From: an uncultured Methanosarcinales archaeon
GTDB lineage: Archaea > Nanobdellota > Nanobdellia > Woesearchaeales > CAZPJY01
Direction: 5' to 3'
Length of the DNA: 34,671 nucleotides
Assembly: GCA_964587045.1 (NCBI GenBank)
Contig: CAZPJY010000021.1
Location: forward strand, 1 to 34,671
How positions within the stretch are numbered: the first letter of the stretch is position 1; the number at the start of each line of letters is the position of its first letter. The position numbers and the translations under genes are program-made. This document shows, piece after piece, positions 1,079 to 20,516 of this stretch. A model generated the notes under the pieces. The model saw only the letters and a program-made list of their open reading frames with translations. It ran no database searches and was not told the DNA's origin.

Positions 1079-3286
1079 CTAAGCGATGTTGCCTATGGAG
1101 CCCATAATCTGGCCTGCAATCAGGTTGAAGATGAGCATTACGATGGCAGAAACAACGGAGTAGAGCACCACGCTCTTTATCAGGTTGGTCCCTATGGCAT
1201 ACTTTTCGCCCAGCTTGTCAGAGCCGTTCTCTATGCCGTTGGTGAGAACTGACAGTATCCAGATGATCTGCACGACGTAGATGCCGACGATTACCTGGAA
1301 GTAATAGGCTGGGATGCCGTCGCCGAACATCTCCATGATCCCTCCGCCTCCGAGAGCGGCCGAGCCGGATTGCGCTGCCGATTCGGTCATCGCCCTCATC
1401 TGCTGGGAAAGCCTCCCAAGGATGGTCGTTATCATGCTGGTTATGCCCACCACGATTCCAGATATGACAGGTGTGAGGAAGGATATCTGAGATTTCATGG
1501 AGGAGATGATGTCGCTTAGGAGGTCCTTGAGCCGCTCATCGACCGAGTGCATCTGCTTTATGTACTGCGAGACGTTTATCAGCGCCTGGCTGGCCACTAG
1601 CGGGCCCTTCTTTGAGCTCTCGACGAGAACCTTCATAGAGCTTTCGATCAGGTTGGACGGGTAGTATATCAGGGCGCCGACTCGCGTGTCGAAAATGGCC
1701 TGGTGCACGCCCATCCCGAGCTTCCGTATGTTGGTGCTGACCGTCCGGAAGAAGTTGCCTGACACAGTGCCTTCCATCATGTCGGCTACCTTGTCAAACG
1801 CTATCTCCGCAGGGAAGCCGTCACCCAGCCTGTTGCCAAGCTGGAACAGGGCTGAAGCGAACTCGGTCTCGAGCCGTTTCGCTTTCTCGCGGATTTTTAT
1901 CACGTTCTTGCTCTGTAACTTCGCCTTGAGGCCCAGCATCAGACCAAGCCCAAGGGGCACAGCCAGGCTGACAATCGCCGCGCCTAGTCCGTAAGGCCCG
2001 ATTAGGAGGTCAGGGTCTGTCTTGCTCTCCCTGTATTCCAGGAAGCAGAATTGCTTGCCACAGCTGTTTGTGGCGTCCTTTAGCCCGAAGCCGAAATCAG
2101 GCATGCCGAGATTGAACATCACTACAGGCATGATTCCGAATAGGAAGACGAGCCCTCCGACCAAGATGGCGATTATCAGTGGAGAGATTCTCAGCTCAGC
2201 ACCCCCCAAGTTGATTATCAGATTCCTATACTTCCTCAGCTCGGGGTTCTCCTCTGATATGTCCGTGTCCCCATAGCCAGTCGGACGAGAGGCCAGCACG
2301 ACTTTGCCCAGATAGAACACGCCTATGGGCAGCATTACGTTGTAGAGGGCCGCGATATGGTACCACTTCACTCCTTCCATGAAGCTCACGACCAGCGGCA
2401 GGACGACCAAGCCCAGGATGGGCAGGATGATGCCAAGCATGTGGAGCATGGTAATAGGGCTCTTGAGGTTTTGGGCGAAGTGGAGCATCTTTTCGTAGGT
2501 CTCCTCCAGTATGACTGAGAGCGCCTTGTCGAGGGCGTTGAGCCTCCTGTCTTCTGCAGACTCGTACAGCGACCCCTCTATCAGGTGCATGGCCTCGATG
2601 AACTCCAGGTTCCATTTCCTCCAGGACTCGAGGTAGTAGTCCAGGGACTCCTTCACCGACTCATACTTCTGGGTCTCGACATCCCACAAGACCTTCTTGA
2701 GGTCGAGGGAGAGAGGGGGTGACAGGTGCTCCGCAGCGAAGTCAATCGCGTTCTCGAGATTGGAAGTGTGCCTCATGTAGGTCACAACGTAGAAGACGCA
2801 GAGGACCATCTGGTTGCTTGCTTTCATCCTCCAGCTGTTGGCCATGAATCCGGGAATCTTCCCCAGAGGCACCATGAGTATGAGCCCGGAGAACATGAAG
2901 AACATCACGAAGAACATGCTCGGCTGAGCGAGGAAGAGAACTGGTATCAGGTATCCTATCACGCCTCCCACGAGCATGAGGACGATCGGAAGCAGAATCG
3001 ATAGGCTCAGAACCCCTCCGGGCGTAACCTCCAGATGGCAAATATTGATGTTCTCCTGGACGAGTTTAGCCTTGGCCGGGTCCGGTTTGATTTTGAGGAC
3101 CTTCTCGGCAAGGTTGCAGGACTTCTCGTACAAGGAGTGATGGAAGGTTACGTAGTCCCGCTTGAAATCATTGTATTCCCTGGAGCTAATCGGGTTGATG
3201 TCGCTCCTCTCAGGATCCAGCTCGTTCTCAAGCTTGGACTTGTACTTGGTAAGAATATCCTTTATCTCATCATCTTCGGAGCCCAT
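1079..3286 (-). CDS. TadB/TadC (T2SS F-family) multi-pass membrane platform protein, two fused F-like domains
   Basis: Directly downstream of the secretion ATPase. ATG at 3286 sits 2 nt after the ATPase stop, so it is preferred over the track start at 3343. Two soluble helical domains (NLENAIDFAAEHL..PLSLDLKK and EFASALFQLGNRLGDG.P.E.AF) are each followed by TM bundles. Confidence 0.85.
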   Translation of the reverse strand: MGSEDDEIKDILTKYKSKLENELDPERSDINPISSREYNDFKRDYVTFHHSLYEKSCNLAEKVLKIKPDPAKAKLVQENINICHLEVTPGGVLSLSILLPIVLMLVGGVIGYLIPVLFLAQPSMFFVMFFMFSGLILMVPLGKIPGFMANSWRMKASNQMVLCVFYVVTYMRHTSNLENAIDFAAEHLSPPLSLDLKKVLWDVETQKYESVKESLDYYLESWRKWNLEFIEAMHLIEGSLYESAEDRRLNALDKALSVILEETYEKMLHFAQNLKSPITMLHMLGIILPILGLVVLPLVVSFMEGVKWYHIAALYNVMLPIGVFYLGKVVLASRPTGYGDTDISEENPELRKYRNLIINLGGAELRISPLIIAILVGGLVFLFGIMPVVMFNLGMPDFGFGLKDATNSCGKQFCFLEYRESKTDPDLLIGPYGLGAAIVSLAVPLGLGLMLGLKAKLQSKNVIKIREKAKRLETEFASALFQLGNRLGDGFPAEIAFDKVADMMEGTVSGNFFRTVSTNIRKLGMGVHQAIFDTRVGALIYYPSNLIESSMKVLVESSKKGPLVASQALINVSQYIKQMHSVDERLKDLLSDIISSMKSQISFLTPVISGIVVGITSMITTILGRLSQQMRAMTESAAQSGSAALGGGGIMEMFGDGIPAYYFQVIVGIYVVQIIWILSVLTNGIENGSDKLGEKYAIGTNLIKSVVLYSVVSAIVMLIFNLIAGQIMGSIGNIA

Positions 3287-3288
3287 TT

Positions 3289-5574
3289 TCAAACCGTTTT
3301 TTGCTGGCGCTTCTTGCCCTCCCGCTTGAGCCACTCGTTCCACTGGAAGAATATCTCCTTAGAGTCGAGACTGCCCTTCTCGGCCTGCACTTTCTCGCTA
3401 ATTTTGTGGAACTTGTCGTTGGCAAAGATAACGAACTCGGCCTCAAGCATGTCTGGATCCTTTAGCTCCTTCGAGATCTCCACCAACCTCTCCTTGATGT
3501 TGGCGCGAAGCATGATATTATCCCACACCGCATCCCAGTTGCCAGCCCACTCCTTGACCCCCGATGCTATCATCTTGAGTATGTCAGAGTCACCGTTCAT
3601 CAGGTCGTCTGTGGTTTCCAGCTGGTCTGACTCGGGATTGTATTTCATGAGGTCCACGAATCCGCCCTCGACCATCGGGTCCTCCTCCCAGTTCTTCCTG
3701 ACCTCAGTGATCTGGATGACCCTCCTAAACTTGTGCAGGCCGTCGGCCGAGCGCACCGGATTTGCGATTATCACAATGTCAGTCGCCTTAAACGATGTCT
3801 TGGGCACGCCGATATCGTTGACTACGCGGTCGAACACGCCGTAGGGCGAGTCTCCGTGGATAGTCCCGGCCACAACGTTGGCCGCTGCCCCGACACGCAT
3901 CGCCTCATACAAGGCCGTGGCCTCAGTGCTCCTGACCTCGCCGACAATGAGTGCTGAGTCGCCCAGGCGCAGGGTGCTCCTTATGCCGTCGGACGCGCTC
4001 ATCTCGGAGGAAGAGACTGAGAGCGCACTTGCCACTTTCATGGGCTGGATGTTGAAACCGAGCTTCCTCATGGACCCGGTGGGCAGCTCGAGCGTGTCCT
4101 CGACGGTTATTATGCGGTAACGCCTCATTATCTCGACGAGCAGGGATGACAGGAGTGAGCTCTTACCCGAGCCTCTGGTCCCAGCTATGAGAATGGCTCT
4201 CGTGCCGTCTATCAGGAAGCTGATCAGGCCCGCCGCCAGGGGGTTGAGCATGCCATTCTTTATGAAGAGGGGCAGTGTCCAAGGATTATCCCTGTGCCTC
4301 CTGAAAGAGAAGGCGAGGCCGGTCGGATCGAGAGGCTTGGCGATGGTAGAGACACGCGCTGTCGCACCTGGGATTGAGAGGTCCGTATCGAGCAGGGGGT
4401 TGGCCTCGTCAAGGGGCCTTCCTGATATCATCCTCAATTTAGAGGCCCAGGATTCCGCCTCGCTCGGGGTCGGTATGATATTGGTCAGGCAGTCGCCGTA
4501 CACACCATGCACGATGAAGATTGGGATCTGGCCCATCGGTGAGTTGATCGATACGTCCTGGATATTCTCATCCTGCAGCAGGACCTCGACCAGTCCGAAG
4601 CCGACGGTGTAGCGCACCAGGATCGCCGCGAGGGTGTCGAGCTGCTTGTCATCCATGGTGATGCCCTTGTGGATGGCGATTTCCTCGAGCAGGTCGTGGC
4701 CCACGTTCTCAAAGATTTGCCGCATGCGCTCAGGATTGACGAATTCCGATTTCTTGGGCTTGTGCTCTGCCATTATCTTCCTCGCCGAGTCGAGCACCTC
4801 GTACTCCTCCTCGGTCAGCCTGAACTCTGGGGGCATAATGTGATAGAGGTACATTACATTGTCGGGCATCTCAAAGATTGTTACCTCAGTCTCGTTTACC
4901 CTGTAATTGTCCAGCTCCTCCGCATCCTGGGGGAAGTTGGCCATCAATTTGGTAAACATGAAATCCGGCTTGATGAAGGGGGAGAATATCTTCCTGTAGA
5001 CCGCCCTGTCACTTATCTTGTAGCCTGGCAGGTAGGGTTGGGCTATGGTGATGAGTCTCGTCTTCTCCAGGAGATCTATAAGCTCTGAGACCATGTTTAT
5101 GAATTTCTGCTCCGACTCGGTCTGCTTTTCGTCGATTGACTTTTGCAGGGATATCCTAGCTCTCCTTATAACGCGCTTGAGCTCGACGTAAGCACCGATA
5201 GGATCGCTCTTGAGCAGATTGGCTATTATGTTTTGTATCTCCACGTAACGCTGGTCCTTGGTCCTGGACTGGCCGTCGATCCCGAAGGCCTTGTATCCAA
5301 AGGAGTCCTTCCTCTTTGCGATGTGGTTGTAGAGCCGTGCTAGCTCCGAGAGCATCCTAGTCTGCGGGTAGTCGTACTCATAGTCGCGCTTCTGCGTTAA
5401 CACGACTTTGGTAGCATCCGTGACCTCCCCCAGCTTGTCGATGACCTTGGCCATTACCGCTGGTTCGTCCTCGATAGAAGGATAATGGGTGCTAGCATCC
5501 ATGTTGAACCGGAGGGTTGTGTCCTCACCCTCGCGGACGACCTCATAGTCCTCTGCGCCCTTGTTGAATAGCAT
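3289..5574 (-). CDS. type IV pilus / type II-IV secretion ATPase (VirB11/CpaF/ArlI superfamily) with long N-terminal extension
   Basis: Walker A GTRGSGKS, Asp box TVEDTLEL, Walker B LIVGEVR and His box GTIHG. Start ATG 5574 is preceded by the SD-like GAGGT. Confidence 0.93.
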   Translation of the reverse strand: MLFNKGAEDYEVVREGEDTTLRFNMDASTHYPSIEDEPAVMAKVIDKLGEVTDATKVVLTQKRDYEYDYPQTRMLSELARLYNHIAKRKDSFGYKAFGIDGQSRTKDQRYVEIQNIIANLLKSDPIGAYVELKRVIRRARISLQKSIDEKQTESEQKFINMVSELIDLLEKTRLITIAQPYLPGYKISDRAVYRKIFSPFIKPDFMFTKLMANFPQDAEELDNYRVNETEVTIFEMPDNVMYLYHIMPPEFRLTEEEYEVLDSARKIMAEHKPKKSEFVNPERMRQIFENVGHDLLEEIAIHKGITMDDKQLDTLAAILVRYTVGFGLVEVLLQDENIQDVSINSPMGQIPIFIVHGVYGDCLTNIIPTPSEAESWASKLRMISGRPLDEANPLLDTDLSIPGATARVSTIAKPLDPTGLAFSFRRHRDNPWTLPLFIKNGMLNPLAAGLISFLIDGTRAILIAGTRGSGKSSLLSSLLVEIMRRYRIITVEDTLELPTGSMRKLGFNIQPMKVASALSVSSSEMSASDGIRSTLRLGDSALIVGEVRSTEATALYEAMRVGAAANVVAGTIHGDSPYGVFDRVVNDIGVPKTSFKATDIVIIANPVRSADGLHKFRRVIQITEVRKNWEEDPMVEGGFVDLMKYNPESDQLETTDDLMNGDSDILKMIASGVKEWAGNWDAVWDNIMLRANIKERLVEISKELKDPDMLEAEFVIFANDKFHKISEKVQAEKGSLDSKEIFFQWNEWLKREGKKRQQKTV

Positions 5575-5644
5575 AACCTCTTCTCCCCGCAAGTTTAATA
5601 TAGGAACACTCTCTAATTATGAAGCTAGGTATATAAATATTGTG

Positions 5645-6076
5645 ATGGATATGGACGAGGACACCTCCCCCCCGGTTGCCCCTGTAAAGAGGATGCACAG
5701 TCACGTGTCTCCTGAGGTAGCAGAGCTCTCAACGCAGATAAATGCGGTAGGGACAAGGATCAGGATCATTGAGGAGAGGTATCTCAACCTCAGGAAGAAG
5801 ACCCAGGTGACTGACGCAAACATGCTCGAGGTCCACAAGCGCATGGAGCATGAGATCAAGGCTATAAACAACGACCTCCTTGAGATGAGGAGGGAGATTG
5901 ACGACCTCAGGGACAAGATGAAGGTGATGGTCCACGAGGTCATGGACAGCGCAAGGAAAGAGGATCTTGATGTGGTCAAGAAGTACCTGGACCTGTGGGA
6001 ACCGGTGAAATTCGTCACAACAGAGGATGTTGAGAAAATCGCGCAAAGAATACGCGACGAAAGCTTTAATAACTAG
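5645..6076 (+). CDS. coiled-coil hypothetical protein
   Basis: Likely start ATG 5645 or 5651. Long heptad-like helical run ending KKYLDLWEPVKFVT. Divergent from the ATPase. Confidence 0.8.
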   Translation: MDMDEDTSPPVAPVKRMHSHVSPEVAELSTQINAVGTRIRIIEERYLNLRKKTQVTDANMLEVHKRMEHEIKAINNDLLEMRREIDDLRDKMKVMVHEVMDSARKEDLDVVKKYLDLWEPVKFVTTEDVEKIAQRIRDESFNN

Positions 6077-6094
6077 GCACAGACAAGAATAACC

Positions 6095-6673
6095 ATGAGC
6101 CCTGCACCAGCACCTTTCCTGACCAACCTGCCGATCGGGCAGGTGAAAGCTATGATTGACCAGGGGCTATCCCAGAACCAGATAATCGAGAACCTGCAAA
6201 GGGACGGGTTCTCATCACAGCAGATCCTAGATTCGATTCATCAAATTCAACTCAAAGGAGGTGTGGATGCAATCAATCAACCGCCACCCATGCAACAACC
6301 TTACCAAGGAACCCAGCAACCTGCTCCTGCTTCGATGCCAGCCGAAATGGCGCCGGCAAACGAAGAGCTGATTGAGGCCATCATCGATGAGAAGTGGAAC
6401 GACCTCATGAAGGACATCAATAGGATCATAGAATGGAAGAACAAGACTGACGCCAAGATAGCGGCCATCGAGCAGATGTTCTCTGATCTCAAAGACAACT
6501 TCGACAAACTTCACACCGCAGTCATATCGAAAGTGGGAGAGTATGACAAGAATATCCTAGAGGTCGGAAATGAGATTAAGGCGCTCGAGAAGGTGTTCTC
6601 AAAAGTCATCCCGACTCTGACCGACAATGTCAACGAGCTCTCGCGCATAACCAATGCGATGAAGAAAGGCTAG
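6095..6673 (+). CDS. hypothetical protein: small N-terminal helical domain, Q/P-rich linker, C-terminal coiled coil
   Basis: N-terminal QGLSQNQIIENLQRDGFSSQQI, linker QPPPMQQPYQGTQQPAPA, then a helical region from EELIEAIIDEKW to the end. Confidence 0.85.
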   Translation: MSPAPAPFLTNLPIGQVKAMIDQGLSQNQIIENLQRDGFSSQQILDSIHQIQLKGGVDAINQPPPMQQPYQGTQQPAPASMPAEMAPANEELIEAIIDEKWNDLMKDINRIIEWKNKTDAKIAAIEQMFSDLKDNFDKLHTAVISKVGEYDKNILEVGNEIKALEKVFSKVIPTLTDNVNELSRITNAMKKG

Positions 6674-7248
6674 GGACCTGATGGAGCTCTGGTTAGGAAG
6701 TATATCGCAAAAGTCGCGACGAAGAACATAAGGATTAGACCTAGCACTACAGGATGAGTCAGGGTGTTGCTGAGGTTGTCCCCAAAATTGCTAGACGCCG
6801 TTGAGGTGGATCCTTCTGAGGTCGTAGTGGTCGTAGTTCCACTATCCCTTTTCTCAAGCAGCCCCTGGCCAAAGGTCACGCTTCCTGCAGCGATTATGAT
6901 GATTATCATCACCGCCACCAGCCAATAAACTATCTCGTTGTGGCTAGTGAGGACCCCTCTGAAGTCCTCGTCTCCCGCGTTGAATATCCTAAATGCCATC
7001 AGGACAAGGACAATCACCAGGAAGAGAACCACAAACCAGGGGACCATGAACCTCACCATGCCCAGCACCGTCGGTGAGAAGAGCACGATCACTGCTATGG
7101 AGAACCCGATTATGGCGGCCAAGCCCCGCCTGCCTTCGCCAAGAGCGTTGGTTTTATCCAGCAATCCGTAGACAATGACAAAAATGAGAATGAAGATAAA
7201 AATTGAAGAAAAATGTTCAAATATGCCAACATCCAAAAATGTTGCCAT
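6670..7248 (-). CDS. 5-TM membrane protein, paralog 3
   Basis: Five hydrophobic segments. N-terminal motif FIFILIFVIVYGLLDKTNALG is shared with the next two genes. S/T-rich loop between TM4 and TM5. Confidence 0.9.
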   Translation of the reverse strand: MATFLDVGIFEHFSSIFIFILIFVIVYGLLDKTNALGEGRRGLAAIIGFSIAVIVLFSPTVLGMVRFMVPWFVVLFLVIVLVLMAFRIFNAGDEDFRGVLTSHNEIVYWLVAVMIIIIIAAGSVTFGQGLLEKRDSGTTTTTTSEGSTSTASSNFGDNLSNTLTHPVVLGLILMFFVATFAIYFLTRAPSGP

Positions 7249-7257
7249 TATCCATCA

Positions 7258-7884
7258 TTAATCCTTGAGGGCTTTGCCGACATTATCCCAGGATTTCTTT
7301 ACTACGTTGCCACCTGCTTTCTTCGGCTTATCCTCTTTGGTTATGAACCACACTATGATGCCGAATACAAGGATCATGATGACAAGCGCTTGCGTATCGG
7401 GATCGTCAAGCCACCAAAGCCAACAGTTGTTGGTAATGTCGCCCGGACAGAAGGACCAGCCTCCTGCGCTCCTGTAGCCCCACCACCCGGCTGCAGCACC
7501 AAAGATGATGATTATGATGACCACCGAGAGTATAATGACCCAGGTCGCCAGCGACGTGCCCGCAATCTTCACGCTCGCTCCGAACGTTCCGATTAGGAGC
7601 AGGACCATCAATATCGCAACCACAACGATGGAAACGTTGGGAATCGCCGTGTTGATGATCTCAACGATATCCGCGTTGGGCGGGTATGAGCCAGTTATAT
7701 GAGGTACCACCACAAGGAGCGCTATAACCAGAGCGACGCCGATGTTATAGTTCTTCTTGCCTTCTCCGATTATCTTCGTCTTCTGGAGGATTGCGAAGAT
7801 TATCGTAAAGATCAAGATGAAGGGCAGCAGAATATCGGTTAACCCCCAACTGTCCCATGTTCGAATCACATCATACAGCGTCAT
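7258..7884 (-). CDS. 5-TM membrane protein, paralog 2
   Basis: Motif LLPFILIFTIIFAILQKTKIIG..KNYN. Five TM segments. Strong SD AGGAGGT at 7898-7892. Confidence 0.92.
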   Translation of the reverse strand: MTLYDVIRTWDSWGLTDILLPFILIFTIIFAILQKTKIIGEGKKNYNIGVALVIALLVVVPHITGSYPPNADIVEIINTAIPNVSIVVVAILMVLLLIGTFGASVKIAGTSLATWVIILSVVIIIIIFGAAAGWWGYRSAGGWSFCPGDITNNCWLWWLDDPDTQALVIMILVFGIIVWFITKEDKPKKAGGNVVKKSWDNVGKALKD

Positions 7885-7929
7885 TTTGGATACCTCCTTT
7901 GGATATGTTCCATTTCTTGTTGTTAGTCC

Positions 7930-7945
7930 TATATAAATCTTTTTG
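7930..7945 (-). promoter_or_regulatory. archaeal BRE/TATA promoter for the 7884 gene
   Basis: Minus strand reads CAAAAAGA-TTTATATA about 45 nt upstream of the ATG, leaving room for a 5' UTR containing the SD. Confidence 0.7.
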
Positions 7946-7955
7946 TTTTATGGTC

Positions 7956-8510
7956 TTATTTGTCCTCGTGCTTATCCCCCTGCGGCTTAGGGGACCTGGT
8001 AACCCATACCATGTACACGATAATTATGACTATGAGGATAATCGATAGCACAGCCGTGCTGTCCCAGTGAAGGACCAGGTAGTCCCACCACTCTGAAAGC
8101 CAGCCGATGGCGTTTAGCCAGATTAGAATAATACCTATTAGAACAGCGATCATGAACCCGATACGCCACTTGCCCTCAAGGATGACTTCCTCCTTCTCGC
8201 TGTAGAAAGTCCCGATGAGGAGCAGAAAGGAGAATATCAGCAGGAGCACAAGCACCATGTCGGCCATGGCCTTGTTAATCGTCTCTACCAGCTTGGTCGA
8301 GGCGACCACCAAAAAGCCGATGACAAATGCTATCATGGAGTTGAGGTTCTTCTTGGTCACGATCATGTCGCCTACCTTGTCGGTCCCGAGCACCTTCGTC
8401 TTCTCAAGAATCGCAAAGACTATCGTGAACACGAGTAGGAAAGGTAGAACGACATCATAGACGCCTATCTTGTCGAAGAAGACTATAATGTCCCTGAACG
8501 CGGATGCCAT
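7956..8510 (-). CDS. 5-TM membrane protein, paralog 1
   Basis: Motif VLPFLLVFTIVFAILEKTKVLG...KNLN. Five TM segments. Confidence 0.92.
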   Translation of the reverse strand: MASAFRDIIVFFDKIGVYDVVLPFLLVFTIVFAILEKTKVLGTDKVGDMIVTKKNLNSMIAFVIGFLVVASTKLVETINKAMADMVLVLLLIFSFLLLIGTFYSEKEEVILEGKWRIGFMIAVLIGIILIWLNAIGWLSEWWDYLVLHWDSTAVLSIILIVIIIVYMVWVTRSPKPQGDKHEDK

Positions 8511-8604: not shown

Positions 8605-9183
8605 ATGATGGAAAAGGCTAACAAGGAAGATTTCTCAAAGCTGAGAAAGCAGATTGACGAGGCAGAACAGCAAAGGGAGGGGCTCATAAGAGATTCCAGG
8701 GACATCCTGACTCTCTCTAAGCAGATGATATTCCAGGTCCACCGAAAGGATATGAATGCGGCATCAGAGTCCAGAAAGGCGTTGGAGAGCTCCTACAAGG
8801 CCTTCGTGGCCAAGTACGACAATCAGGACAGCGGTTCTTACCGGGTAGCGGTTCAGGAGTACGTCGAGGCAGCCGCACTCTACTCCTTCGTAAAGGAAGG
8901 CAAGCTGCCAACATCTGACGAGCTGCACGCAAACGTAGAGGGCTACCTCCTAGGGGTCTGCGACCTCTCAGGCGAGCTCGTGAGGCTCGCGGTGAATTCA
9001 GCCATAAGAGAGGAGTACAGCACTGTCAAGAAGGTCAGGGAGTTCCTAGGCAGCCTGTACGAGCAGCTGCTCGGGCTTTCCCTGCGCAGGGGGGACCTCC
9101 GCAAGAAGTTCGACAGCGTCAAGTGGGACCTGAACCGGATCGACGAGCTGGTCCTCAACCTGAAGATGAGGGATTCCATTTGA
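8605..9183 (+). CDS. translin/TRAX (C3PO) family protein
   Basis: All-helical protein with QEYVEA and YLLGVCDLSGELVR, matching the TRAX-type ExxE and DxxGE catalytic motifs. Confidence 0.88.
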   Translation: MMEKANKEDFSKLRKQIDEAEQQREGLIRDSRDILTLSKQMIFQVHRKDMNAASESRKALESSYKAFVAKYDNQDSGSYRVAVQEYVEAAALYSFVKEGKLPTSDELHANVEGYLLGVCDLSGELVRLAVNSAIREEYSTVKKVREFLGSLYEQLLGLSLRRGDLRKKFDSVKWDLNRIDELVLNLKMRDSI

Positions 9184-9404
9184 ATGAGGATATCAAGAAG
9201 CAGGCCAAGGAGATTATGGATGAGTTCATGGCTGCCATGGAGCGCGCTGGCGTAAAGCCTGACAAAGCCGCTGGCCTGGAGAGGGAAGCCCAGGTCAGGA
9301 CAGGGCTCGAGCCTTGCCAGGATAAGGAGTTTCCAGAGCTCATGCTCAAAAACGCACCCAAGGTCAAAGACCATTCCGTTGTCGCCGAGAGGAAGAATTG
9401 GTAA
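9180..9404 (+). CDS. gatC: Asp-tRNA(Asn)/Glu-tRNA(Gln) amidotransferase subunit C
   Basis: About 74 aa, immediately before gatA, with the C-terminal MLKNAPKVKDH pattern typical of GatC. Probable TTG start overlapping the translin stop (TTGA). Confidence 0.75.
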   Translation: MNEDIKKQAKEIMDEFMAAMERAGVKPDKAAGLEREAQVRTGLEPCQDKEFPELMLKNAPKVKDHSVVAERKNW

Positions 9405-9406
9405 GC

Positions 9407-10663
9407 ATGGACCAAATCCAAAAATACCTGCAGCGAATCGAGGAGAGCGACTCGAACTCTTTCCTCTATGTGAATCCCAACGCTGAGAAGGAAGCCAAAA
9501 ACGCGGACGGCAAGCTGGCAGGTATGGCATTTGCCATCAAGTCAAACATCAACGTCAAAGGACTCCCAGTGACCTGCGCATCAAAAGTGCTCGGAGGGAA
9601 GAGGCCATACATAGGCACTTTCGACGCCGACGTCATATCCAGAATCAGGGCCGAAGGAGGGGTCATCCTGGGCATGACCAACATGGACGAGTTCGCATGC
9701 GGCAGCTCAGGCGAGAGCAGCGCCTTTGGCCCGTCAAAGAACCCAGCAGCAAGAGAGCATATACCTGGGGGGAGCTCGAGCGGGAGCGCAGCCGCCGTTG
9801 CAGAAGGCCTTTGCGACGCCGCGCTCGGATCAGACACTGGGGGCAGCATCAGGAATCCTGCCTCGCACTGCGGGGTGGTCGGAATCAAGCCCAGGTACGG
9901 GCGCGTCTCCAGGCACGGACTGATAGACCTGTCCATGTCGCTGGACCAGATAGGCCCTTTCAGCCGCGATGTGGAGACAGCGGCCCGCGTGCTTGAGGTA
10001 ATAGCGGGCCCGAGCCCGAACGATCCTACCACCATCAAAAGCCCGGTCGGAAACCTCACCATACCAAAAAGAGGTAGAATCAAGTTCGGGATATCAGGCG
10101 AGCTCGACGCCTTATGCCATGATCCTAGGATCATGAAAGTCATCCATGGCAAGCTGGAAGGCCTCTCGCCGGTCGATGTGAGTCTGGACGGGGTGGATCT
10201 CGCAGTCCAGGCGTACTACCCCCTGGTTTATGTCGAGTTCTTCAGCGGGACGAGGAGGTTCGACGGAAGGAAGTATGGCGAGGTGATAGAGGAGGTCGCC
10301 GGTCCAGAGGTGCTGCGGAGAATCATGGGAGGGAGGGAGATATCGAAGGCGGAATTCAAAGGGAGGTACTACAGGATGGCCCTCGCGGTCAAGAAGAGCA
10401 TTGCGGAATCGTTTTCAAGGGCCTTCAGGAAGACCGATGTGATAGTATCCGCAGTCACCCCTATCCTTCCTCACAGGTTGGGTGAGGAGATATCTGACCC
10501 GAGGGTCATGTACGCCTATGACGCCCTGACCGTACCCGTCAACCTGGCGGGCTGCTGCGCCGGGGTAATCCCTGCCGGCAAGGTTGGGGGCGTTCCGGTG
10601 GGCATGCAGGTTATAGCGCCTGACGAGGAGACCCTGTTTTCCGCATTGGAGATGATTTCATGA
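9407..10663 (+). CDS. gatA: Asp-tRNA(Asn)/Glu-tRNA(Gln) amidotransferase subunit A
   Basis: Amidase signature: catalytic Lys (AIKSN), TNMDEFACGSS, PGGSSSGSAAAVA and GSDTGGSIRNPA. GatA-specific RFDGRKYG and EVLRRIMGG. Confidence 0.93.
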   Translation: MDQIQKYLQRIEESDSNSFLYVNPNAEKEAKNADGKLAGMAFAIKSNINVKGLPVTCASKVLGGKRPYIGTFDADVISRIRAEGGVILGMTNMDEFACGSSGESSAFGPSKNPAAREHIPGGSSSGSAAAVAEGLCDAALGSDTGGSIRNPASHCGVVGIKPRYGRVSRHGLIDLSMSLDQIGPFSRDVETAARVLEVIAGPSPNDPTTIKSPVGNLTIPKRGRIKFGISGELDALCHDPRIMKVIHGKLEGLSPVDVSLDGVDLAVQAYYPLVYVEFFSGTRRFDGRKYGEVIEEVAGPEVLRRIMGGREISKAEFKGRYYRMALAVKKSIAESFSRAFRKTDVIVSAVTPILPHRLGEEISDPRVMYAYDALTVPVNLAGCCAGVIPAGKVGGVPVGMQVIAPDEETLFSALEMIS

Positions 10664-10837
10664 CCGGACACTCACATATTTTCATCATCCTGATTGTGAG
10701 GACTTTGGGCCAGCGGCTGCGGAGGCCCAATACAGGATTACTCAGAGTTACAAGATAACCTAAATGTTTCAGTGCTATCATAACCAGAATCAATGATTCA
10801 GGAGAATTCAACAGAACCAACAAAAGAGGTGGAAAAC

Positions 10838-11464
10838 ATGCTTGATTTAGGAGAAGTGAAATTAGAGTGGCTCGGACACGCGAGCTTCAAGATACAGGGA
10901 GATAAGAACATCTACATCGACCCCTATAACGTCGATGAGCCTGAGGCAGCTGACATCATCCTGATCACACACAGCCACTATGACCACTGCAGCATCGAGG
11001 ACCTGAGGGACCTCTCAAATGAGAGCACAGTCATAGTCGCGCCTCCCGACTGCCAGAGCAAGCTAAAAGACATAAAGAAGAGTGAGGTCATACTTGTGGC
11101 GCCGAGCAAGAAGTTCCAGATCGGCGACATCGAGATCGAGACCGTGCCCGCCTACAATCTCGACAAGCAGTTCCATCCCAAAGCCAACAACTGGGTGGGC
11201 TACATTGTGACTGTCGCAGGGAAGAGGTTCTACCACGCCGGCGACACTGACGCGGTGCCTGAGATGGCCGAACTAAAGGACATCGACGTTGCCATGCTTC
11301 CGGTCGGCGGGACGTACACCATGACCGCAGAGGAGGCTGCCAAAGCCTGCAACGCCTTCAAGCCCAAGATTGCAGTGCCAATGCATTGGGGCTCTATAGT
11401 CGGAGGGAAGAGCGATGCTGAGCGCTTCAAGGAGCTCTGCGAGGCAGAAGTCAGGATTCTCTGA
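10838..11464 (+). CDS. MBL-fold metallo-hydrolase
   Basis: WLGHASF, IDPY, THSHYDH, YHAGDT, LPVGG.YTM and PMHWG motifs. SD GAGGTG before ATG 10838. Confidence 0.92.
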   Translation: MLDLGEVKLEWLGHASFKIQGDKNIYIDPYNVDEPEAADIILITHSHYDHCSIEDLRDLSNESTVIVAPPDCQSKLKDIKKSEVILVAPSKKFQIGDIEIETVPAYNLDKQFHPKANNWVGYIVTVAGKRFYHAGDTDAVPEMAELKDIDVAMLPVGGTYTMTAEEAAKACNAFKPKIAVPMHWGSIVGGKSDAERFKELCEAEVRIL

Positions 11465-11495
11465 CGCAATCTTTTTATAACGAGTATGAAATCCT

Positions 11496-13262
11496 ATGAT
11501 TAAAATGAAGACCAGCCTTAGAACTCATACGTGCGGTGAGCTAACCGCCAAGGATGTGGGAACCACGGTCTCGCTTTGCGGCTGGGTCCAGTCGAGGAGG
11601 GACCATGGGGGAGTTATTTTCATCGACCTGCGGGACCGATACGGTCTGACCCAGATAGTCTTTGATCCCCGCAATGACGATAACGCCCACTCCGCTGCCG
11701 AGGACATCAGACGGGAGTTCGTCCTGCGGGCTCATGGCAAGGTCAGGAACCGCGCTGAAGGCATGGTCAACCCCAAGATGGCCACAGGGGAGATCGAGGT
11801 CATCACCGACGCGGTGGAGGTCCTGTCCAAGAGCGAGATGCCCCCTTTCGAGATAGAAGACAACATCGACTGCAGCGATGACGTCCGGCTGAAATACAGG
11901 TACCTGGACCTCAGAAGGCCGCAGATGCGGCATAACATGATTGCGAGGCACAAGATTGCCAAGCTCGTCCGCGACTACTTCGACGGGGAGGGGTTCATCG
12001 AGATCGAGACCCCGATGATAGCCAAGTCGACCCCTGAGGGAGCTAGGGACTACCTTGTTCCCAGCAGGAAGTATGCTGGGCAGTTCTACGCCCTGCCCCA
12101 GAGCCCCCAGATATTCAAGCAGCTCTGCATGGTGGCTGGTTTTGACCGCTACTGCCAGATCGTCCGGTGCTTCCGGGACGAGGACCTCAGGGCGGACAGG
12201 CAGCCTGAGTTCACCCAGATTGACATCGAGATGAGCTTCATCCAGCGCGAAGACCTGTTCAAGGTCATCGAGGGCATGATGAAGAAGCTCATCAAGGAGA
12301 CAAAAGGCATTGACATCAAGGTCCCAATCAGGAGAATCGCGTACGATGAGGCGATGGCGCTTTACGGGTCTGACAAGCCCGACCTGAGGTTCGGCCTCCC
12401 ACTGGCAGACGTCACCGGGACTGCCCACAAGTCCGATTACAACATCTTCAAGAACGCAGAGCTCGTCAAATGCCTGAAGGTGTCACATTCATTCTCCAGA
12501 AACGAGATTGACGAGTTCACAACGCTCGTCAGCAGGTACGGCGCAAAAGGCCTCTCATGGACGCGCGTCAAAGGCGGAAAATTCGAGAGCGGCGCCGCCA
12601 AGTTCCTGGCCGGCAAGACTGAAGCTGCGCTGATCAAGGAGCTCGGCGCAAAGGACGGCGAGACGCTAATGTTCGTTGCCGGACCTGAAAAAGTGGTCAA
12701 CGACAGCCTCGCGAATCTGCGCCTGAAGGTTGGTAGTATGCTGGGACAGATTGATGACACCAAGATTGAGCTTGCATGGATAGTCGACTTCCCCTTGATG
12801 GAGTGGAGCGACGAGGAGCAGAGGTGGGTGTCGATGCATCATCCGTTCACCAGGCCTCTGAAGGAGGATGAGCACCTGCTTGACAAGAGCCCGGAGAAGG
12901 CTAGGAGCAACGGCTACGACTTAGTAATGAACGGCAACGAGATTGCCGGTGGCTCCATAAGGATCAACGAGCCAGAGCTTCAAGCCAAGATATTCAAGGC
13001 TTTGGGACTGTCGAAGGAGCAGGCAGAGGAGAAGTTCGGCTTCCTCATGGGCGCTTTCAGGTACGGGGCCCCCCCACACGGGGGGATCGCGTTCGGACTG
13101 GACAGGCTGGTCGCCCTGCTTACCGGAAACGACTCCATCAGGGAGGTCATAGCGTTCCCGAAGAACAAGAACGCGCAGGACCTGATGATGGGATCTCCCA
13201 ATTCTGTCGACGACAAGCAGCTGCGCGAGCTGCACATCAAGCTTGATATGCCAAAGAAATGA
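11496..13262 (+). CDS. aspS: aspartate--tRNA ligase, bacterial type with insertion (GAD) domain, likely non-discriminating
   Basis: 588 aa. RTHTCGEL, RDHGGVIFIDLRDRYG, STPEGARDYLVPSR, YALPQSPQ, CFRDEDLRADRQPEFTQ, GGSIRI and APPHGGIAFGLDR motifs. Confidence 0.97.
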   Translation: MIKMKTSLRTHTCGELTAKDVGTTVSLCGWVQSRRDHGGVIFIDLRDRYGLTQIVFDPRNDDNAHSAAEDIRREFVLRAHGKVRNRAEGMVNPKMATGEIEVITDAVEVLSKSEMPPFEIEDNIDCSDDVRLKYRYLDLRRPQMRHNMIARHKIAKLVRDYFDGEGFIEIETPMIAKSTPEGARDYLVPSRKYAGQFYALPQSPQIFKQLCMVAGFDRYCQIVRCFRDEDLRADRQPEFTQIDIEMSFIQREDLFKVIEGMMKKLIKETKGIDIKVPIRRIAYDEAMALYGSDKPDLRFGLPLADVTGTAHKSDYNIFKNAELVKCLKVSHSFSRNEIDEFTTLVSRYGAKGLSWTRVKGGKFESGAAKFLAGKTEAALIKELGAKDGETLMFVAGPEKVVNDSLANLRLKVGSMLGQIDDTKIELAWIVDFPLMEWSDEEQRWVSMHHPFTRPLKEDEHLLDKSPEKARSNGYDLVMNGNEIAGGSIRINEPELQAKIFKALGLSKEQAEEKFGFLMGAFRYGAPPHGGIAFGLDRLVALLTGNDSIREVIAFPKNKNAQDLMMGSPNSVDDKQLRELHIKLDMPKK

Positions 13263-14567: not shown

Positions 14568-15329
14568 ATGAGTCTAACAGAGAACCAGGAAATCTTTCTT
14601 TCCGGTTATGTGAAACCGGTTCTCGAGCATTTCAGCAGGACCGAACTGATGGTCCGAGCGGAAAAACAAGTTCCAAGGATTTTCGTCAACAGGGAAGAAG
14701 GATTCAATATCGAGAGTGTGTTGGAGTCCCTGCCTGATGAAGAACGGGGTGTCCTTTCGCAAAAGTTTGACAAGGGCTGCAGCTTCTACTCCCCCATCGT
14801 CAATGTGGTATACATTCACAATTTGAGGAAATCAGACATCGCAGAGGAGGCCACGCATTTCTGCCATAACCTGAACGCGCCGAACGACTTCTCCAACCTG
14901 TCGAGGAAGGGTGATTGCTTATGGGCAGTCATAATGTACGAGGCCTTGGGATTCTACGGCTCAAAGGTGATCCAACCCTGGAGGCGGCCTATTAAGATCG
15001 AATCGCTTGATGAAAAGGACCCTTATCAGAAAAGCCTGATTGACGGCTATTACAATCAAATTGAGTTCATGAGCGCGGTGGTTTATACAACTCCTGAGAA
15101 TGACGTGCCTGACGATGTGATGCCCCTGTTTTTCCAAAACGAGAGCCTGATGCAACCCTACAGGGATCTGGCGCATATCATGGGTTACGAGCTGGGCCAG
15201 ACCTTCTTCAAGCGCAAGAGGAGGGATCTCGCGCTGCGTATCTTCAACAATCCTTTGAAGGAGAACCTCTTCATAACCTACCTTAACATCCTTGAGAACC
15301 TCAACGGCGTCGACGAGACAAGAGTATAG
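14568..15329 (+). CDS. hypothetical protein, possible zincin-like peptidase (EExxH variant)
   Basis: FYSP..NVVYI strand followed by AEEATHF and a downstream YEALGFYGSK helix. Confidence 0.55.
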   Translation: MSLTENQEIFLSGYVKPVLEHFSRTELMVRAEKQVPRIFVNREEGFNIESVLESLPDEERGVLSQKFDKGCSFYSPIVNVVYIHNLRKSDIAEEATHFCHNLNAPNDFSNLSRKGDCLWAVIMYEALGFYGSKVIQPWRRPIKIESLDEKDPYQKSLIDGYYNQIEFMSAVVYTTPENDVPDDVMPLFFQNESLMQPYRDLAHIMGYELGQTFFKRKRRDLALRIFNNPLKENLFITYLNILENLNGVDETRV

Positions 15330-16971
15330 CGGCCGCTGCCCCAGTGATTCCACCCAGCAGGAATATCAGGACTCCGCGTTCGAAATATCCCATCATGAGC
15401 TTCGGCCTTGGGGGGAAGTACTCATCGAGGTTGGAGAACTCAAGCGCGTATTCTGCAAATAGGAGAGAAAGGTAGGGCTGGTCCTCCCTGAGTGATTTCG
15501 AGTACTCGTAGTAAGAATAGCCGATTATGGGGAAAGGCTTCTTTGCAATCTGCCTTCCTATGCTCCTTTCCACAACCTCGAGTTTTGCATCGAGCAGGTC
15601 GGATAGGTCCGCCTCATCGAGCTGCATGAGTGAGAGCATGATGTCAGACTCGGCCTTTGCCTTGCTGGCCTCGAAAACGCACAGCCCGTATTCCCCCAAC
15701 TGGGAAAGCTCAACGGCATGGGTCAATGACTCTTCAATAGATTCCGGATGGATCCCCAGGAACATGTTCAGGTACTGGTACCTTTCCTCGGCCTCCCGGG
15801 TCTTCTGGTAGCATGTATCCTCCTGGACTGTCAGGTCGACCAGCTTGTCGTCATCGTTGTAAAAGAAGTCCCCCCAATAGAGGGCAGAGTAGTACCTCTC
15901 TATTCCCTGAGCCAGGGACGTCCTCTCTCCGGGCCCATCGCCTTCCTCCTTTGCTATGTATGCATTATCGAGCTGTTTCGTCGCCTCAGACAGGCGCGAC
16001 CTGACAATTATGTCCGTTTGGAAGTCTGTAAGCGTGTCCGGAGAGTAGTTGCCAATCCTTGAATCGAAGTCTGCTATCTTGTCAGTAAGCCAGGACATCA
16101 GCTGGTCAGCGTAGCTGTCGGATATGTTCATCAGCAGCACTTTCCTGGCATCGAGGTTTGCTGTAAAACAGAAGCTCGCCTTCGTATAGTAAAGGCCGTC
16201 GGTTTCATCTGCGCGCTGGGAATAGTTGCGTGCCTTCTGAGCCTCGTAGCTCTCATCACCCCCTATCTCCTCCAAGAGACTCTTTGTCCTGCTGCACATC
16301 TTGGATGCTATCTCACCCATTATGCGCTCGTAGCCGGGATCTATCTTGATCTCTCCTTTCTCAGGCTCAAAACCGTATAGGTCATAGAGGACCTCTCCTA
16401 TGTCGTCGACCTCCTTCACCTTGATACTTATGGTTTCGTTACCGGCATTTATCGCCTTGTAAATGTCAGATTTTAGGAACTCTCCAGCAGGCACGTATAT
16501 GGTTGAGAAGTTCAGCTCGTCTGCCTTGCGGATCTTGGCGTCGATTCCGCCGACTGGTCCTATCACACCCCCCGAGTTGATTGTGCCTGTGATCACAACA
16601 TCAAGGGGAAGCTCCCAGCCCTTCAGCGAGGCAATTGTCAGGAGAGCGATTGCAGCGCCTGCCGACGGCCCGCCTATGATGGACGACTGGCTCCTTAGAG
16701 TGTATATGAAATCCTTGTCCGTGCAGTCCTCATCTATATACGTGCATGCCACGTCACGCGCAAGTCTTGTGGATATCTGCGTGTCGAACTTGGAAAGGGG
16801 GTAAGTGTCTATGTACACTCTCCCCATGCCCGGTATGACATCGAGGGTCACGTCCGCAGGACTCCCGACGAACTCGCCGTTCTCCTCAGTGACAGCTATC
16901 AGCATCATGTGGTAAGCCGATGCCGTCGGCAGGACAAGTACAAGCATGATCATCAGGGCTGCGAGTCGCAT
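15301..16971 (-). CDS. membrane-anchored Lon-like (S16) serine protease, archaeal COG1750 type
   Basis: N-terminal signal peptide, GGPSAG (catalytic Ser), TGTI..GG.IGPVGGIDAK (catalytic Lys), long helical region, C-terminal TM followed by RRRR. No AAA domain. Confidence 0.9.
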   Translation of the reverse strand: MRLAALMIMLVLVLPTASAYHMMLIAVTEENGEFVGSPADVTLDVIPGMGRVYIDTYPLSKFDTQISTRLARDVACTYIDEDCTDKDFIYTLRSQSSIIGGPSAGAAIALLTIASLKGWELPLDVVITGTINSGGVIGPVGGIDAKIRKADELNFSTIYVPAGEFLKSDIYKAINAGNETISIKVKEVDDIGEVLYDLYGFEPEKGEIKIDPGYERIMGEIASKMCSRTKSLLEEIGGDESYEAQKARNYSQRADETDGLYYTKASFCFTANLDARKVLLMNISDSYADQLMSWLTDKIADFDSRIGNYSPDTLTDFQTDIIVRSRLSEATKQLDNAYIAKEEGDGPGERTSLAQGIERYYSALYWGDFFYNDDDKLVDLTVQEDTCYQKTREAEERYQYLNMFLGIHPESIEESLTHAVELSQLGEYGLCVFEASKAKAESDIMLSLMQLDEADLSDLLDAKLEVVERSIGRQIAKKPFPIIGYSYYEYSKSLREDQPYLSLLFAEYALEFSNLDEYFPPRPKLMMGYFERGVLIFLLGGITGAAAAILLSRRRR

Positions 16972-19829: not shown

Positions 19830-20516
19830 CTAGTCCATGCGTCGCTTCGAGAATGTGTACAATCTAGCAGGCCTATGCGCTCCTTCCATCTTGGTCTCAT
19901 TGGTCTCGACGACAAGGCCTATTGATTTCATCTTCTTCCTGAAGTTGCGTTTGTCAAGCTTCTTGTTGAGTATTATCTCGTAGACCTTCTGCAGCTCCGT
20001 CAAGGTGAACATGTCCGGAAGCAGCTGGAAAGCGATTGTCGTGTATTCGACCTTGTTCCTTATCCTTTCGAGCGCATATGAGATTATCTTCTCGTGATCG
20101 AATGCCATCTTCTTGGGGAGGCTGTATGCAGAATGCCATTTGGTCTCATCAATGGATTTCTGTACCTTGAAGCGGGCCTCATCTGCGAGAGCGTAGTAGG
20201 CCACAGTGATAATCCTTCCCCTGATATCCCTTTTGGGGTCCCCAAAAGTGTACAGCTGCTCTAGATAGACATCCATTACCCCGGTCTCTTCTTTGAGCTT
20301 CCGGAGGGCTGAGGCGTCGAGGGATTCCTCCATCTTTATGAATCCCCCTGGGATCGCCCAGTAGTCAATGAATGGGTAACCCTTTCGCTTGATTAGCAGA
20401 ACCTTCAGATCATCATCCCTGATTGTAAAGACTATGATGTCGACAGTGACTTGAGGACGCTTGAATCGCTTGTCTTCCTCCTTCCACTCCTTGGCATCCT
20501 TTATGACCTTGTCCAT
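19830..20516 (-). CDS. nrtR: NrtR-family Nudix/winged-helix transcriptional regulator
   Basis: Nudix box GGFIKMEESLDASALRKLKEETG, LEQLYTFGDPKRD and AFDH. C-terminal wHTH FTLTELQKVYE...DKRNFRKK...HRPARLY. Confidence 0.88.
   Translation of the reverse strand: MDKVIKDAKEWKEEDKRFKRPQVTVDIIVFTIRDDDLKVLLIKRKGYPFIDYWAIPGGFIKMEESLDASALRKLKEETGVMDVYLEQLYTFGDPKRDIRGRIITVAYYALADEARFKVQKSIDETKWHSAYSLPKKMAFDHEKIISYALERIRNKVEYTTIAFQLLPDMFTLTELQKVYEIILNKKLDKRNFRKKMKSIGLVVETNETKMEGAHRPARLYTFSKRRMD

Follow-up and report, generated by a model that had tools for sequence, protein, structure and literature searches.

A conserved secretion-ATPase and TadC locus of DPANN archaea as a candidate motor for a host-contact pilus

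In type IV filament (T4F) biology, a class III peptidase cuts off the short basic leader of prepilins, and a hexameric ATPase powers the platform, lifting subunits from the membrane. Hamm et al. 2024 (PMC11291902) described, in the text available, type IV pilus-like loci of cluster-2 DPANN archaea with coiled-coil proteins (CCPs), CpaF and TadC, and reported that CCPs of such loci are made in Ca. Nha. antarcticus. Subclade 4F, as Makarova, Koonin and Albers (2016, PMC4858521) describe it, has a long ATPase whose Cys-rich N-domain is variable and occurs in Methanocella as well as in nanoarchaea, and in the sections at hand Sivabalasarma and Albers (2026, PMC13705601) present Nanobdellati pilins as scattered and most systems as unassignable. 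The Nanobdella aerobiophila attachment organelle is described as a cone, a portal and a 7-nm tube entering the host, with its molecular identity stated to be open (Gaisin et al. 2024, PMC11104419). M23, SLT and related murein hydrolases are enriched in Nanoarchaeota and Woesearchaeota (PMC12352652, PMC9723730, PMC8204110) and were read as signs of attack on bacteria by Strock et al. 2025, Vigneron et al. 2022 and Castelle et al. 2021; the word 'pili' occurs 0 times in the main texts of PMC12352652, PMC9723730 and PMC8204110.

A filament motor and five neighbouring genes

The window, the whole 34,671-nucleotide stretch of DNA analysed here, comes from a genome we call G000, with its contigs given C-numbers. 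Seven intact, uninterrupted ORFs lie side by side at 1079..8510, as an initial annotation of this DNA had claimed, and they include two components that T4F systems require, a VirB11-type secretion ATPase with intact motifs and an adjoining TadC/ArlJ-type platform. The VirB11/PilB-family ATPase (3289..5574, minus strand; ORF opening at TTG 5592, probable start ATG 5574) has PDB matches and matches Pfam T2SSE above cut-off over residues 412-611; its score reaches the cut-off of no named NCBIfam ATPase family. Across 35 orthologues there is no variation in the residues of the Walker A, Asp box, Walker B and His box motifs. Because residue 32 of A. fulgidus GspE aligns with residue 228 of the window ATPase, the latter has ~195 extra N-terminal residues, close to the roughly 200 first estimated. 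An archaellum identity was considered and rejected, since the ArlI family score was 124 bits against a cut-off of 550 and the archaellin-flanked ATPase of G000 is a different one, on C10.

The N-domain profile, which did not reach Methanocella on its first pass (E 5.6) and needed one iteration through Cys-rich intermediates, then gave E 3e-15 with P0180 of Methanocella, where reversed controls reached E 0.06 at best. The window copy has 0 cysteines in this domain compared to up to 8 in relatives, and some members of the phylum retain them. By profile comparison, the N-terminal ~195 aa are a cysteine-free form of the subclade-4F-type Cys-rich N-domain. In a tree built from 122 of 132 sequences, selected by core coverage and containing no curated 4A-4J or halobacterial references, the ATPase grouped with a Methanocella ATPase on a long stem (support 0.979) and branched apart from the four other ATPases of G000. 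The tree suggests that it belongs to a long-branch, subclade-4F-type clade that includes Methanocella, lying either within 4F or sister to it, and the clade's range also takes in Thermoplasmata, Methanomassiliicoccales and Methanocellaceae. Three of the other four G000 ATPases have local archaellins or pilins of their own (C10, C36 and C42), and the class III candidate search found none beside the fourth, on C25.

The platform gene (1079..3286, minus strand; ORF opening at GTG 3343) probably starts at ATG 3286, immediately after the ATPase stop, and encodes 735 aa with nine hydrophobic, predicted transmembrane (TM) segments. The window copy has no match above cut-off in Pfam or NCBIfam; T2SSF matches 7 of 29 platform orthologues (best E 1e-10). 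The platform proposed in the initial annotation stands; its description as a fused double TadB/C holds only weakly, as its halves align in register with E 0.085, which is not significant.

Upstream of the ATPase, a 70-bp divergent intergenic region (5575..5644) contains, by direct reading, TATATAAAT at 5630-5638 and TTTAATATA at 5595-5603, which we take to be TATA-like elements from the archaeal consensus. A scan with sigma-70 models, which do not cover archaeal promoters, was at chance level. The region is possibly a shared promoter region of both transcription units. Beyond it are the genes for two soluble, predicted coiled-coil proteins, CC1 (5645..6076, plus strand, 143 aa) and CC2 (6095..6673, plus strand, 192 aa). 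Alignment of 26 CC1 orthologues revealed a conserved C-terminal motif, Y-x-x-L-W-x-P-x-x-F-V-T, and CC2 orthologues share a small conserved N-terminal domain, a Pro/Gln-rich linker and a predicted coiled coil of ~100 aa. Neither protein has a Pfam or NCBIfam match above cut-off, and the ESM Atlas gave a single lead for CC2, scoring under 0.9. The two divergently encoded genes reported earlier are thus both present, and their coiled-coil nature is suggested by weak matches to coiled-coil families. CC1 and CC2 align in a suggestive register without significant homology (Prob 1.6%).

The last three genes, all on the minus strand, encode M1 (6670..7248, the most divergent), M2 (7258..7884) and M3 (7956..8510, the best conserved). 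Each has five hydrophobic segments by hydropathy, pairwise identities are 22-33%, and profile cross-matches at E 7e-15 and 4e-13 bear out the earlier description of three paralogous 5-TM proteins. No member has a match above cut-off in Pfam or NCBIfam, and ESM Atlas matches to M3 are confined to unnamed Nanobdellota/Woesearchaeota clusters. For a predicted M3 model (17 sequences, pLDDT 75, pTM 0.41), Foldseek gave nothing at E<=0.001 and the best VIA Z was 5.9; this outcome is uninformative and lends no backing to an MscL or channel identity of M3. An extra copy of M2, 68% identical, lies on C33, and a distant one on C28.

The seven-gene cluster is strongly conserved, with the same order in most DPANN archaea examined. 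An ATPase orthologue with 55-68% identity was found in 39 of 40 relatives drawn from 40 families and in 45/47 genomes of other orders; the two without one are devoid of CC2 as well, and one of the two has M3 at a contig end. Eight relatives have just one secretion-ATPase match, and in every case it is this ATPase. The closest named homologues are from Woesearchaeota, in agreement with the DPANN origin first assigned. CC2 occurs in 199/201 genomes of the phylum, mainly as one match each, and in one Nanohalarchaeota and one Aenigmatarchaeota genome; it was not found in one genome each of Micrarchaeota, Iainarchaeota and Methanocellaceae.

Among loci with enough flank to be assessed, the canonical arrangement of CC1, CC2 and at least two 5-TM genes upstream of the ATPase was found in 17/22 from the window's own order and 27/31 from other orders, which upholds the neighbourhood conservation that the initial annotation had proposed as a check. 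In 24/27 and 30/33 of the loci that could be assessed, CC1 is the divergent neighbour of the ATPase, and TadC lies downstream of the ATPase in 24/29 and 29/31. Loci whose titles name Nanohalarchaeota, Pacearchaeota and Parvarchaeum show a matching arrangement, as does one titled Aenigmatarchaeota, with no TadC in its flank. The accessory block is absent from or rearranged beside the ATPase in the remaining 5/22 and 4/31 loci, and in one genome (G089) all cluster genes are scattered. Loci of Micrarchaeota, Iainarchaeota, Hadarchaea, Thermoplasmata and Methanocellaceae have a same-clade ATPase and TadC and no detectable CC or M genes, so the motor can in principle do without them.

Pilin-like subunits and murein-hydrolase domains

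The window contains none of the 38 class III prepilin candidates in the genome and no A24 prepilin peptidase, as the initial annotation had stated. That absence is local: the only peptidase match in G000 (PF01478, above cut-off) lies at C13:24546-24890, and an operon of about 18 genes, most with class III-type N-termini under a motif-plus-hydropathy rule, lies at C1:70331-82710. An orthologous operon follows TadC in 21/27 loci from other orders compared to 1/24 from the window's own order. G000 orthologues match at E 5e-23, 1e-19, 1e-10 and 4e-13, and the C1 operon is collinear over about 10 genes with the one behind TadC in locus L092. The class III signal-peptide subunits that T4F systems require are thus encoded in trans in G000 and in cis in other orders, and the 'pilin-less' label is contradicted. 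In locus L193, an A24 peptidase lies within the same gene run as the pilin operon. A marker gene for the operon was found in 67 of 80 genomes searched and not in 13; the set had been planned as 94 genomes, of which 14, for the most part duplicates within a genus or family, were omitted. The pilin-like proteins have no structural or Pfam pilin match, and the marker profile has 0 PDB matches.

Several operon proteins carry predicted wall-cutting domains. M23 or SLT matches lie on the same strand within 12 kb downstream of the marker in 19 of 109 cases, in 15/67 genomes, against 0.59 expected under uniform placement, a figure that overstates the contrast because related genomes are not independent samples and genes for surface proteins tend to lie together. 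In 71 and 55 larger operon proteins (one Pfam scan round covered 71 of 111 proteins of at least 300 aa), the hydrolase matches comprised M23, SLT, Amidase_2, Amidase_3 (weak), GH25, M15_4 and C39_2; most operon proteins have no recognised domain. Since 14 of the 40 operons obtained had been picked for an M23/SLT match, we note that 3/25 unselected operons had a hydrolase among the large proteins scanned, and that two Nanohalarchaeota loci and one Parvarchaeum locus, with their few large operon proteins, yielded none, a sample too small for conclusions on a host-specific payload. A class III-type leader was present on 15/17 hydrolase carriers checked. At six loci (L076, L077, L091, L094, L075/L244 and L086/L245), a hydrolase-bearing gene stands directly behind TadC of the ATPase cluster. 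The G000 operon has an M23 domain as well as amidase-3-like and glucosaminidase-like matches (E 0.005 and 0.008) that miss the Pfam cut-off. This pattern suggests that hydrolase domains are interchangeable among operon subunits, and that in some lineages the product is a wall-breaching contact pilus.

Function of the machine and competing explanations

The window genes very probably encode a T4F machine with pilins supplied in trans. We also think it likely, from the conserved gene order, that CC1, CC2 and M1-M3 are physically part of this machine. The initial proposal of one machine made of seven genes holds in that the genes travel together and fails as regards a pilin-less one. Our best overall explanation, held with reasonable confidence, is that a motor half and five likely accessory subunits assemble the C1 pilin-like proteins into a host-contact pilus. 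Since pilin-like genes exist on another contig and some have predicted wall-cutting domains, such a pilus is likelier than a pilin-less channel. Near-universal retention in highly reduced cells (CC2, above), and retention as the sole secretion ATPase, make the machine a strong candidate for host attachment; we favour host contact as its main role with similar, moderate confidence.

Operon proteins of 50 aa and of 80-130 aa would be the major (Flp-like) subunits of this host-contact pilus, and those of 160-340 aa a minor-pilin or tip complex. CC1 and CC2 may dock as a cytoplasmic scaffold onto the N-domain of the ATPase. M1-M3 may surround TadC as a membrane collar or stator, or may position the machine where contact is made. 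In the minor subunits, variable slots could bear a host-adapted payload, which in G000 and many relatives would be murein hydrolases opening the bacterial wall at the point of contact.

Other explanations were weighed against this one. CC1, CC2 and M1-M3 might be a separate essential module, for example in membrane shaping, polarity or division, that shares no more than a divergent promoter with an ordinary 4F-type pilus motor whose pilins are encoded in trans. Consistent with such a module, same-clade ATPase and TadC genes occur without the five genes outside cluster-2 DPANN, the five-gene block is a different transcription unit from the motor, the retention of CC2 resembles that of a housekeeping gene, and G000 has stand-alone extra M, CC1-like and CC2-like paralogues. 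We nevertheless consider it unlikely, because the cluster has one order in Nanobdellota, Nanohalarchaeota and Aenigmatarchaeota alike amid differing flanking genes, because CC1 tends to remain with the ATPase in broken clusters (L051, L062), and because a cytoplasmic coiled-coil gene is also described in halobacterial 4F loci (Makarova 2016, PMC4858521). The initial annotation's own reading, a pilin-less ATPase/TadC machine with the 5-TM proteins as a conduit for host attachment or macromolecule transfer, is very improbable given the pilin-like operon and peptidase of G000 and the operon's position beside TadC in other orders, even though the window has no class III gene, pilin linkage is lost in 23/24 own-order loci, and Makarova 2016 (PMC4858521), as far as its text was available, reports both a nanoarchaeal 4F ATPase without findable cognate pilins and a subclade, 4D, that has no pilins and whose ATPase has a 4-5 TM partner.

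A short piston or retractile pilus for DNA or nutrient uptake (competence- or bindosome-like), with hydrolases freeing material from dead bacteria, also seems improbable. Behind the pilin operon of L223, L225, L227 and L238 comes an RPA-type ssDNA-binding gene, and a gene that we take to be SSB-like from its motif lies near TadC in 14 loci; the latter is, however, on the opposite strand amid housekeeping genes, and no nuclease, DNA-channel or substrate-binding domain appeared among the Pfam matches of 126 proteins. Class III substrate-binding subunits have been proposed for archaeal T4F (PMC13705601, in the part available), in keeping with uptake. Extending the host-contact pilus further, we tentatively raise a bolder idea that is itself doubtful, namely that the cluster would be the core host-invasion machine of cluster-2 DPANN, with a 4F-derived motor, a coiled-coil scaffold, a 5-TM collar and a swappable wall-cutting pilus tip, building the Nanobdella organelle tube and drilling living bacteria with murein-hydrolase tips. 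If this were true, Woesearchaeota and related orders with such tips would be parasites of bacteria, and the domain of the host could be read from one operon.

Comparison with known systems

The core of this locus is already published: coiled coils, ATPase and TadC most likely correspond to Locus 2 of Hamm et al. 2024 (PMC11291902), matched here by its described gene content. Both have coiled-coil genes (there NAR1_03220 and NAR1_01690) beside a CpaF-type ATPase and TadC, and share a range of Nanohaloarchaeota, Woesearchaeota, Pacearchaeota and Nanoarchaeota, along with Aenigmarchaeota; the available text proposes a host-interaction role and names no PilA or FlaF for Locus 2. Our analysis goes beyond that text in the 5-TM paralogues, the ATPase clade and N-domain, the downstream class III operon, the hydrolase payload and the near-universal retention. 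We found no publication that connects the motor with the three 5-TM proteins or with pilins bearing hydrolases within a search whose scope excluded subscription papers and the supplements of PMC11291902 and PMC13705601.

The closest described filament systems are those of subclade 4F, characterised by pilins arCOG02981/arCOG10216 and coiled-coil arCOG07564. As described in the accessible text of PMC4858521, they share with the window a long ATPase with a homologous N-domain, a long TadC partner and, in halobacterial 4F, a cytoplasmic coiled-coil gene. They differ in that the window ATPase has lost the cysteines, that the loci here have a pair of coiled-coil genes and 5-TM paralogues numbering two to four, rarely five, and that a lineage-specific class III operon exists where PMC4858521 found no cognate pilins. 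The initial annotation had said that its proposal would fall if the ATPase belonged to a characterised adhesion-pilus clade with pilins encoded elsewhere; half of this applies, since the pilins are indeed elsewhere but no characterised adhesion pilus belongs to the clade. Subclade 4D comprises two components, an ATPase and a 4-5 TM protein, never with pilins or secreted proteins in the locus, and an identity with it was rejected given the full-length TadC here and the cis pilin-like genes of relatives.

Unlike the archaeal peptidoglycan hydrolases of PMC12352652, PMC9723730 and PMC8204110, as those sources present them, the domains found here form fusions with class III pilin-like carriers within the operon of a conserved motor, and such subunits predict that many Woesearchaeota-type archaea contact bacteria. 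Together, these genes provide a parts list of about 25 for a putative host-contact machine. The organelle described for Nanobdella aerobiophila (PMC11104419) and YN1 (PMC11420986) is a conserved host-contact structure in the same phylum, and the window machine is at most a candidate for its source.

The gene cluster and its conservation

Contig C21, which constitutes the window, belongs to a 1.6 Mb genome whose nearest named homologues are Woesearchaeota. All seven ORFs at 1079..8510 proved intact, and the three 5-TM proteins (M1, M2 and M3) are paralogues, as initially annotated. Each of the three forms a separate orthologous line, indicating that the triplication is old. The ATPase matched Pfam T2SSE, fell under every named NCBIfam cut-off, and showed no variation in catalytic motifs among orthologues; its N-terminal extra, first put at roughly 200 residues, amounts to about 195 ahead of the portion aligning to A. 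fulgidus GspE. The platform, with nine hydrophobic segments and T2SSF matches in 7/29 orthologues, is TadC-type as proposed, but the suggested fused double TadB/C structure is tentative, the internal duplication not being statistically significant.

Elsewhere in the genome are two stand-alone M2 paralogues (C33:12170-12889, 68% identical, and C28:6383-6943, distant), a stand-alone paralogue of the coiled-coil protein CC1 (C3:32331-32702), and a paralogue of the coiled-coil half of its partner CC2 (C1:94645-94995). Two CC2 homologues (P0036, P0051) have a precomputed match to PF28422. Within the window, a Translin-family gene (8605-9183) adjoins the cluster and was not conserved as a neighbor in the loci examined. 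The region 9398-13262 encodes a GatA-like member of the Amidase family and also an aspartyl-tRNA synthetase; because the synthetase has a GAD insert domain, which is typical of bacterial AspRS, it is possibly a bacterial-type enzyme within an archaeon. Of three further genes, the one at 15301-16971 (556 aa) has a Lon_C-like domain and no ATPase match, the one at 19830-20516 encodes a NUDIX and winged-helix regulator of the mainly bacterial NrtR type, and the 467-aa product of 24527-25930 weakly matches a reprolysin-like metallopeptidase.

ATPase orthologues, either full-length at 55-68% identity or contig-cut pieces, occurred in 39/40 relatives (one per family), the exception being a genome 89% complete, and in 45/47 genomes from other orders. 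A CC2 profile matched 199/201 genomes sampled across the phylum, mostly once per genome, and the two without a match were the same two without the ATPase. Where the upstream flank extended to 7 kb or more, CC1 and CC2 together with two or more M genes stood in canonical orientation at 17/22 own-order and 27/31 other-order loci. TadC lay downstream of the ATPase at 24/29 and 29/31 loci, respectively.

A survey of 80 named loci also found the arrangement in Pacearchaeota and Parvarchaeum, in Nanohalarchaeota with two M genes, and in Aenigmatarchaeota with one M gene and no TadC match within the flank. At loci assigned by title to Micrarchaeota, Iainarchaeota, Hadarchaea, Thermoplasmata, Methanomassiliicoccales and Methanocellaceae only the ATPase and TadC were seen, with flanks short in several, and whole-genome searches of one genome each of Micrarchaeota, Iainarchaeota and Methanocellaceae returned no CC2 match. 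This distribution suggests that cluster-2 DPANN added the five accessory genes (CC1, CC2 and M1-M3) to an older motor. Records titled 'Methanosarcinales' (L166, L199, L201, L203) carry Woesearchaeota-type cluster genes with very high scores and are probably mis-titled or mis-binned. ATPase orthologues at loci L091-L096 from other orders contain intein-like insertions at three separate sites, one interrupting Walker A, one within the Asp box and one immediately past Walker B, and L096 has two of them; they end in His-Asn ahead of Thr, which we take to be an intein end motif.

Clade of the ATPase

An exhaustive profile search with name look-ups placed Altiarchaeota and Methanocella among the nearest relatives of the ATPase outside the phylum. 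A core-domain tree of 122 sequences recovered it with them in a long-stemmed clade (support 0.979), apart from the other four ATPases of the genome. The N-extension is homologous to the Cys-rich N-domain of these relatives (E 3e-15 after one iteration; best reversed-sequence match E 0.06). Makarova 2016 (PMC4858521) lists a clade-4 ATPase for N. equitans and describes subclade 4F of the archaeal T4P ATPases by an N-domain that is Cys-rich and variable, by loci in Methanocella, and by nanoarchaeal members whose pilins could not be identified. Judged by this homology and the matching 4F features, the N-extension is not a new domain. Unlike the Cys-rich domain of 4F, the window copy has no cysteines, although as many as eight persist in some relatives. 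The proposed phylogeny yielded a clade from a tree without curated T4P subclade references, and the ATPase may be 4F-type, within or beside 4F.

Some genomes also encode shorter ATPases (about 580-680 aa; L103-L108) from this wider clade; most are paired with a separate TadC, and they are spread over at least two branches. At Iainarchaeota-type loci (L137, L147, L149, L152, L157, L163, L168, L172) a motor of the clade has class III genes of its own following it; close by is a gene with 4-5 TM segments, presumably archaeosortase-like by motif and often adjoining a very large surface protein.

The pilin-like operon and its hydrolases

As annotated, the window holds no class III prepilin, but the machine is very probably not pilin-less. 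Other orders have, after TadC and in the same direction, a run of genes for single-TM proteins with basic-Gly leaders; one gene of this run, used as a marker, lay within 6 kb of TadC at 21/27 other-order loci versus 1/24 own-order loci, and was present in 67/80 genomes. Profile searches found the orthologues in the source genome at C1:70331-82710 (L118:4332-16711; E 5e-23 to 1e-10), an operon of ~18 genes, mostly class III, collinear with the one behind TadC of L092. Because of this orthology and linkage, and since three of the other four secretion ATPases in the genome have their own adjoining archaellins or pilins, we assigned the C1 operon to the window motor as its putative cognate. An A24 peptidase is also encoded in the genome, and at L193 one stands in a single run with motor and pilins. 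Upstream of the C1 operon is a 1350-aa Ig/TSP3 surface protein.

Last in the C1 operon are genes for a class III protein that has a domain resembling amidase-3 (E 0.005), an M23 peptidase (E 9e-25) whose class III-type leader lies across an assembly gap (Ns in the gene start), and a glucosaminidase-like protein (E 0.008). M23 occurred in 31/80 genomes and SLT in 35/80. Of the 109 M23/SLT matches in the 67 genomes with the marker, 19 (in 15 genomes) stood on the same strand up to 12 kb downstream of it, versus 0.59 expected under uniform placement, a contrast inflated by relatedness of the genomes and clustering of surface genes. Pfam scans of 71 + 55 larger operon proteins found M23, SLT, Amidase_2, weak Amidase_3, GH25, M15_4 and C39_2, along with a few adhesin-type or housekeeping domains, the majority having no match. 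A hydrolase gene stood immediately behind TadC of the ATPase cluster at six loci, and 15/17 hydrolase carriers checked had a class III-type leader. A hydrolase was seen in only 3/25 operons taken without preselection, which means that the payload either is optional or often goes unrecognised.

Function and published systems

Type IV filaments form by leader cleavage followed by assembly on the ATPase and platform. The parts of such a machine are present, linked and retained, and on the best reading it probably serves host contact. In it the small subunits would be the pilins of a pilus, CC1 and CC2 would serve as scaffold, M1-M3 would form a collar, and tip enzymes would open the wall. That the accessory five instead form an independent module is unlikely. 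An uptake pilus or piston is less likely still; consistent with it is an RPA-type OB-fold gene directly 3' of the pilin operon in several genomes (L223, L225, L227, L238 and others). A pilin-less channel, to which the cognate operon is opposed, seems very improbable.

The cluster is real and highly conserved, and our literature search returned no paper with the 5-TM trio, cognate pilin-like operon or hydrolase-bearing pilins. Term searches of the accessible text of PMC6393860 and PMC9258230 gave nothing on the seven-gene locus, and the main texts of PMC12352652, PMC9723730 and PMC8204110, which describe murein hydrolases from these archaea, do not mention pili. FlaJ/TadC homologues vary in Nanoarchaeota (PMC6142677), and excerpts of Sivabalasarma and Albers 2026 (PMC13705601) describe adjacent ATPase and platform genes with scattered pilins in Nanobdellati. 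In the excerpted text of Hamm 2024 (PMC11291902), conserved loci of coiled-coil protein (CCP), CpaF and TadC span the same lineages as the window cluster, with CCPs seen by proteomics. Sharing these three components, the window cluster is most likely Locus 2 of that study, matched by description rather than by sequence.
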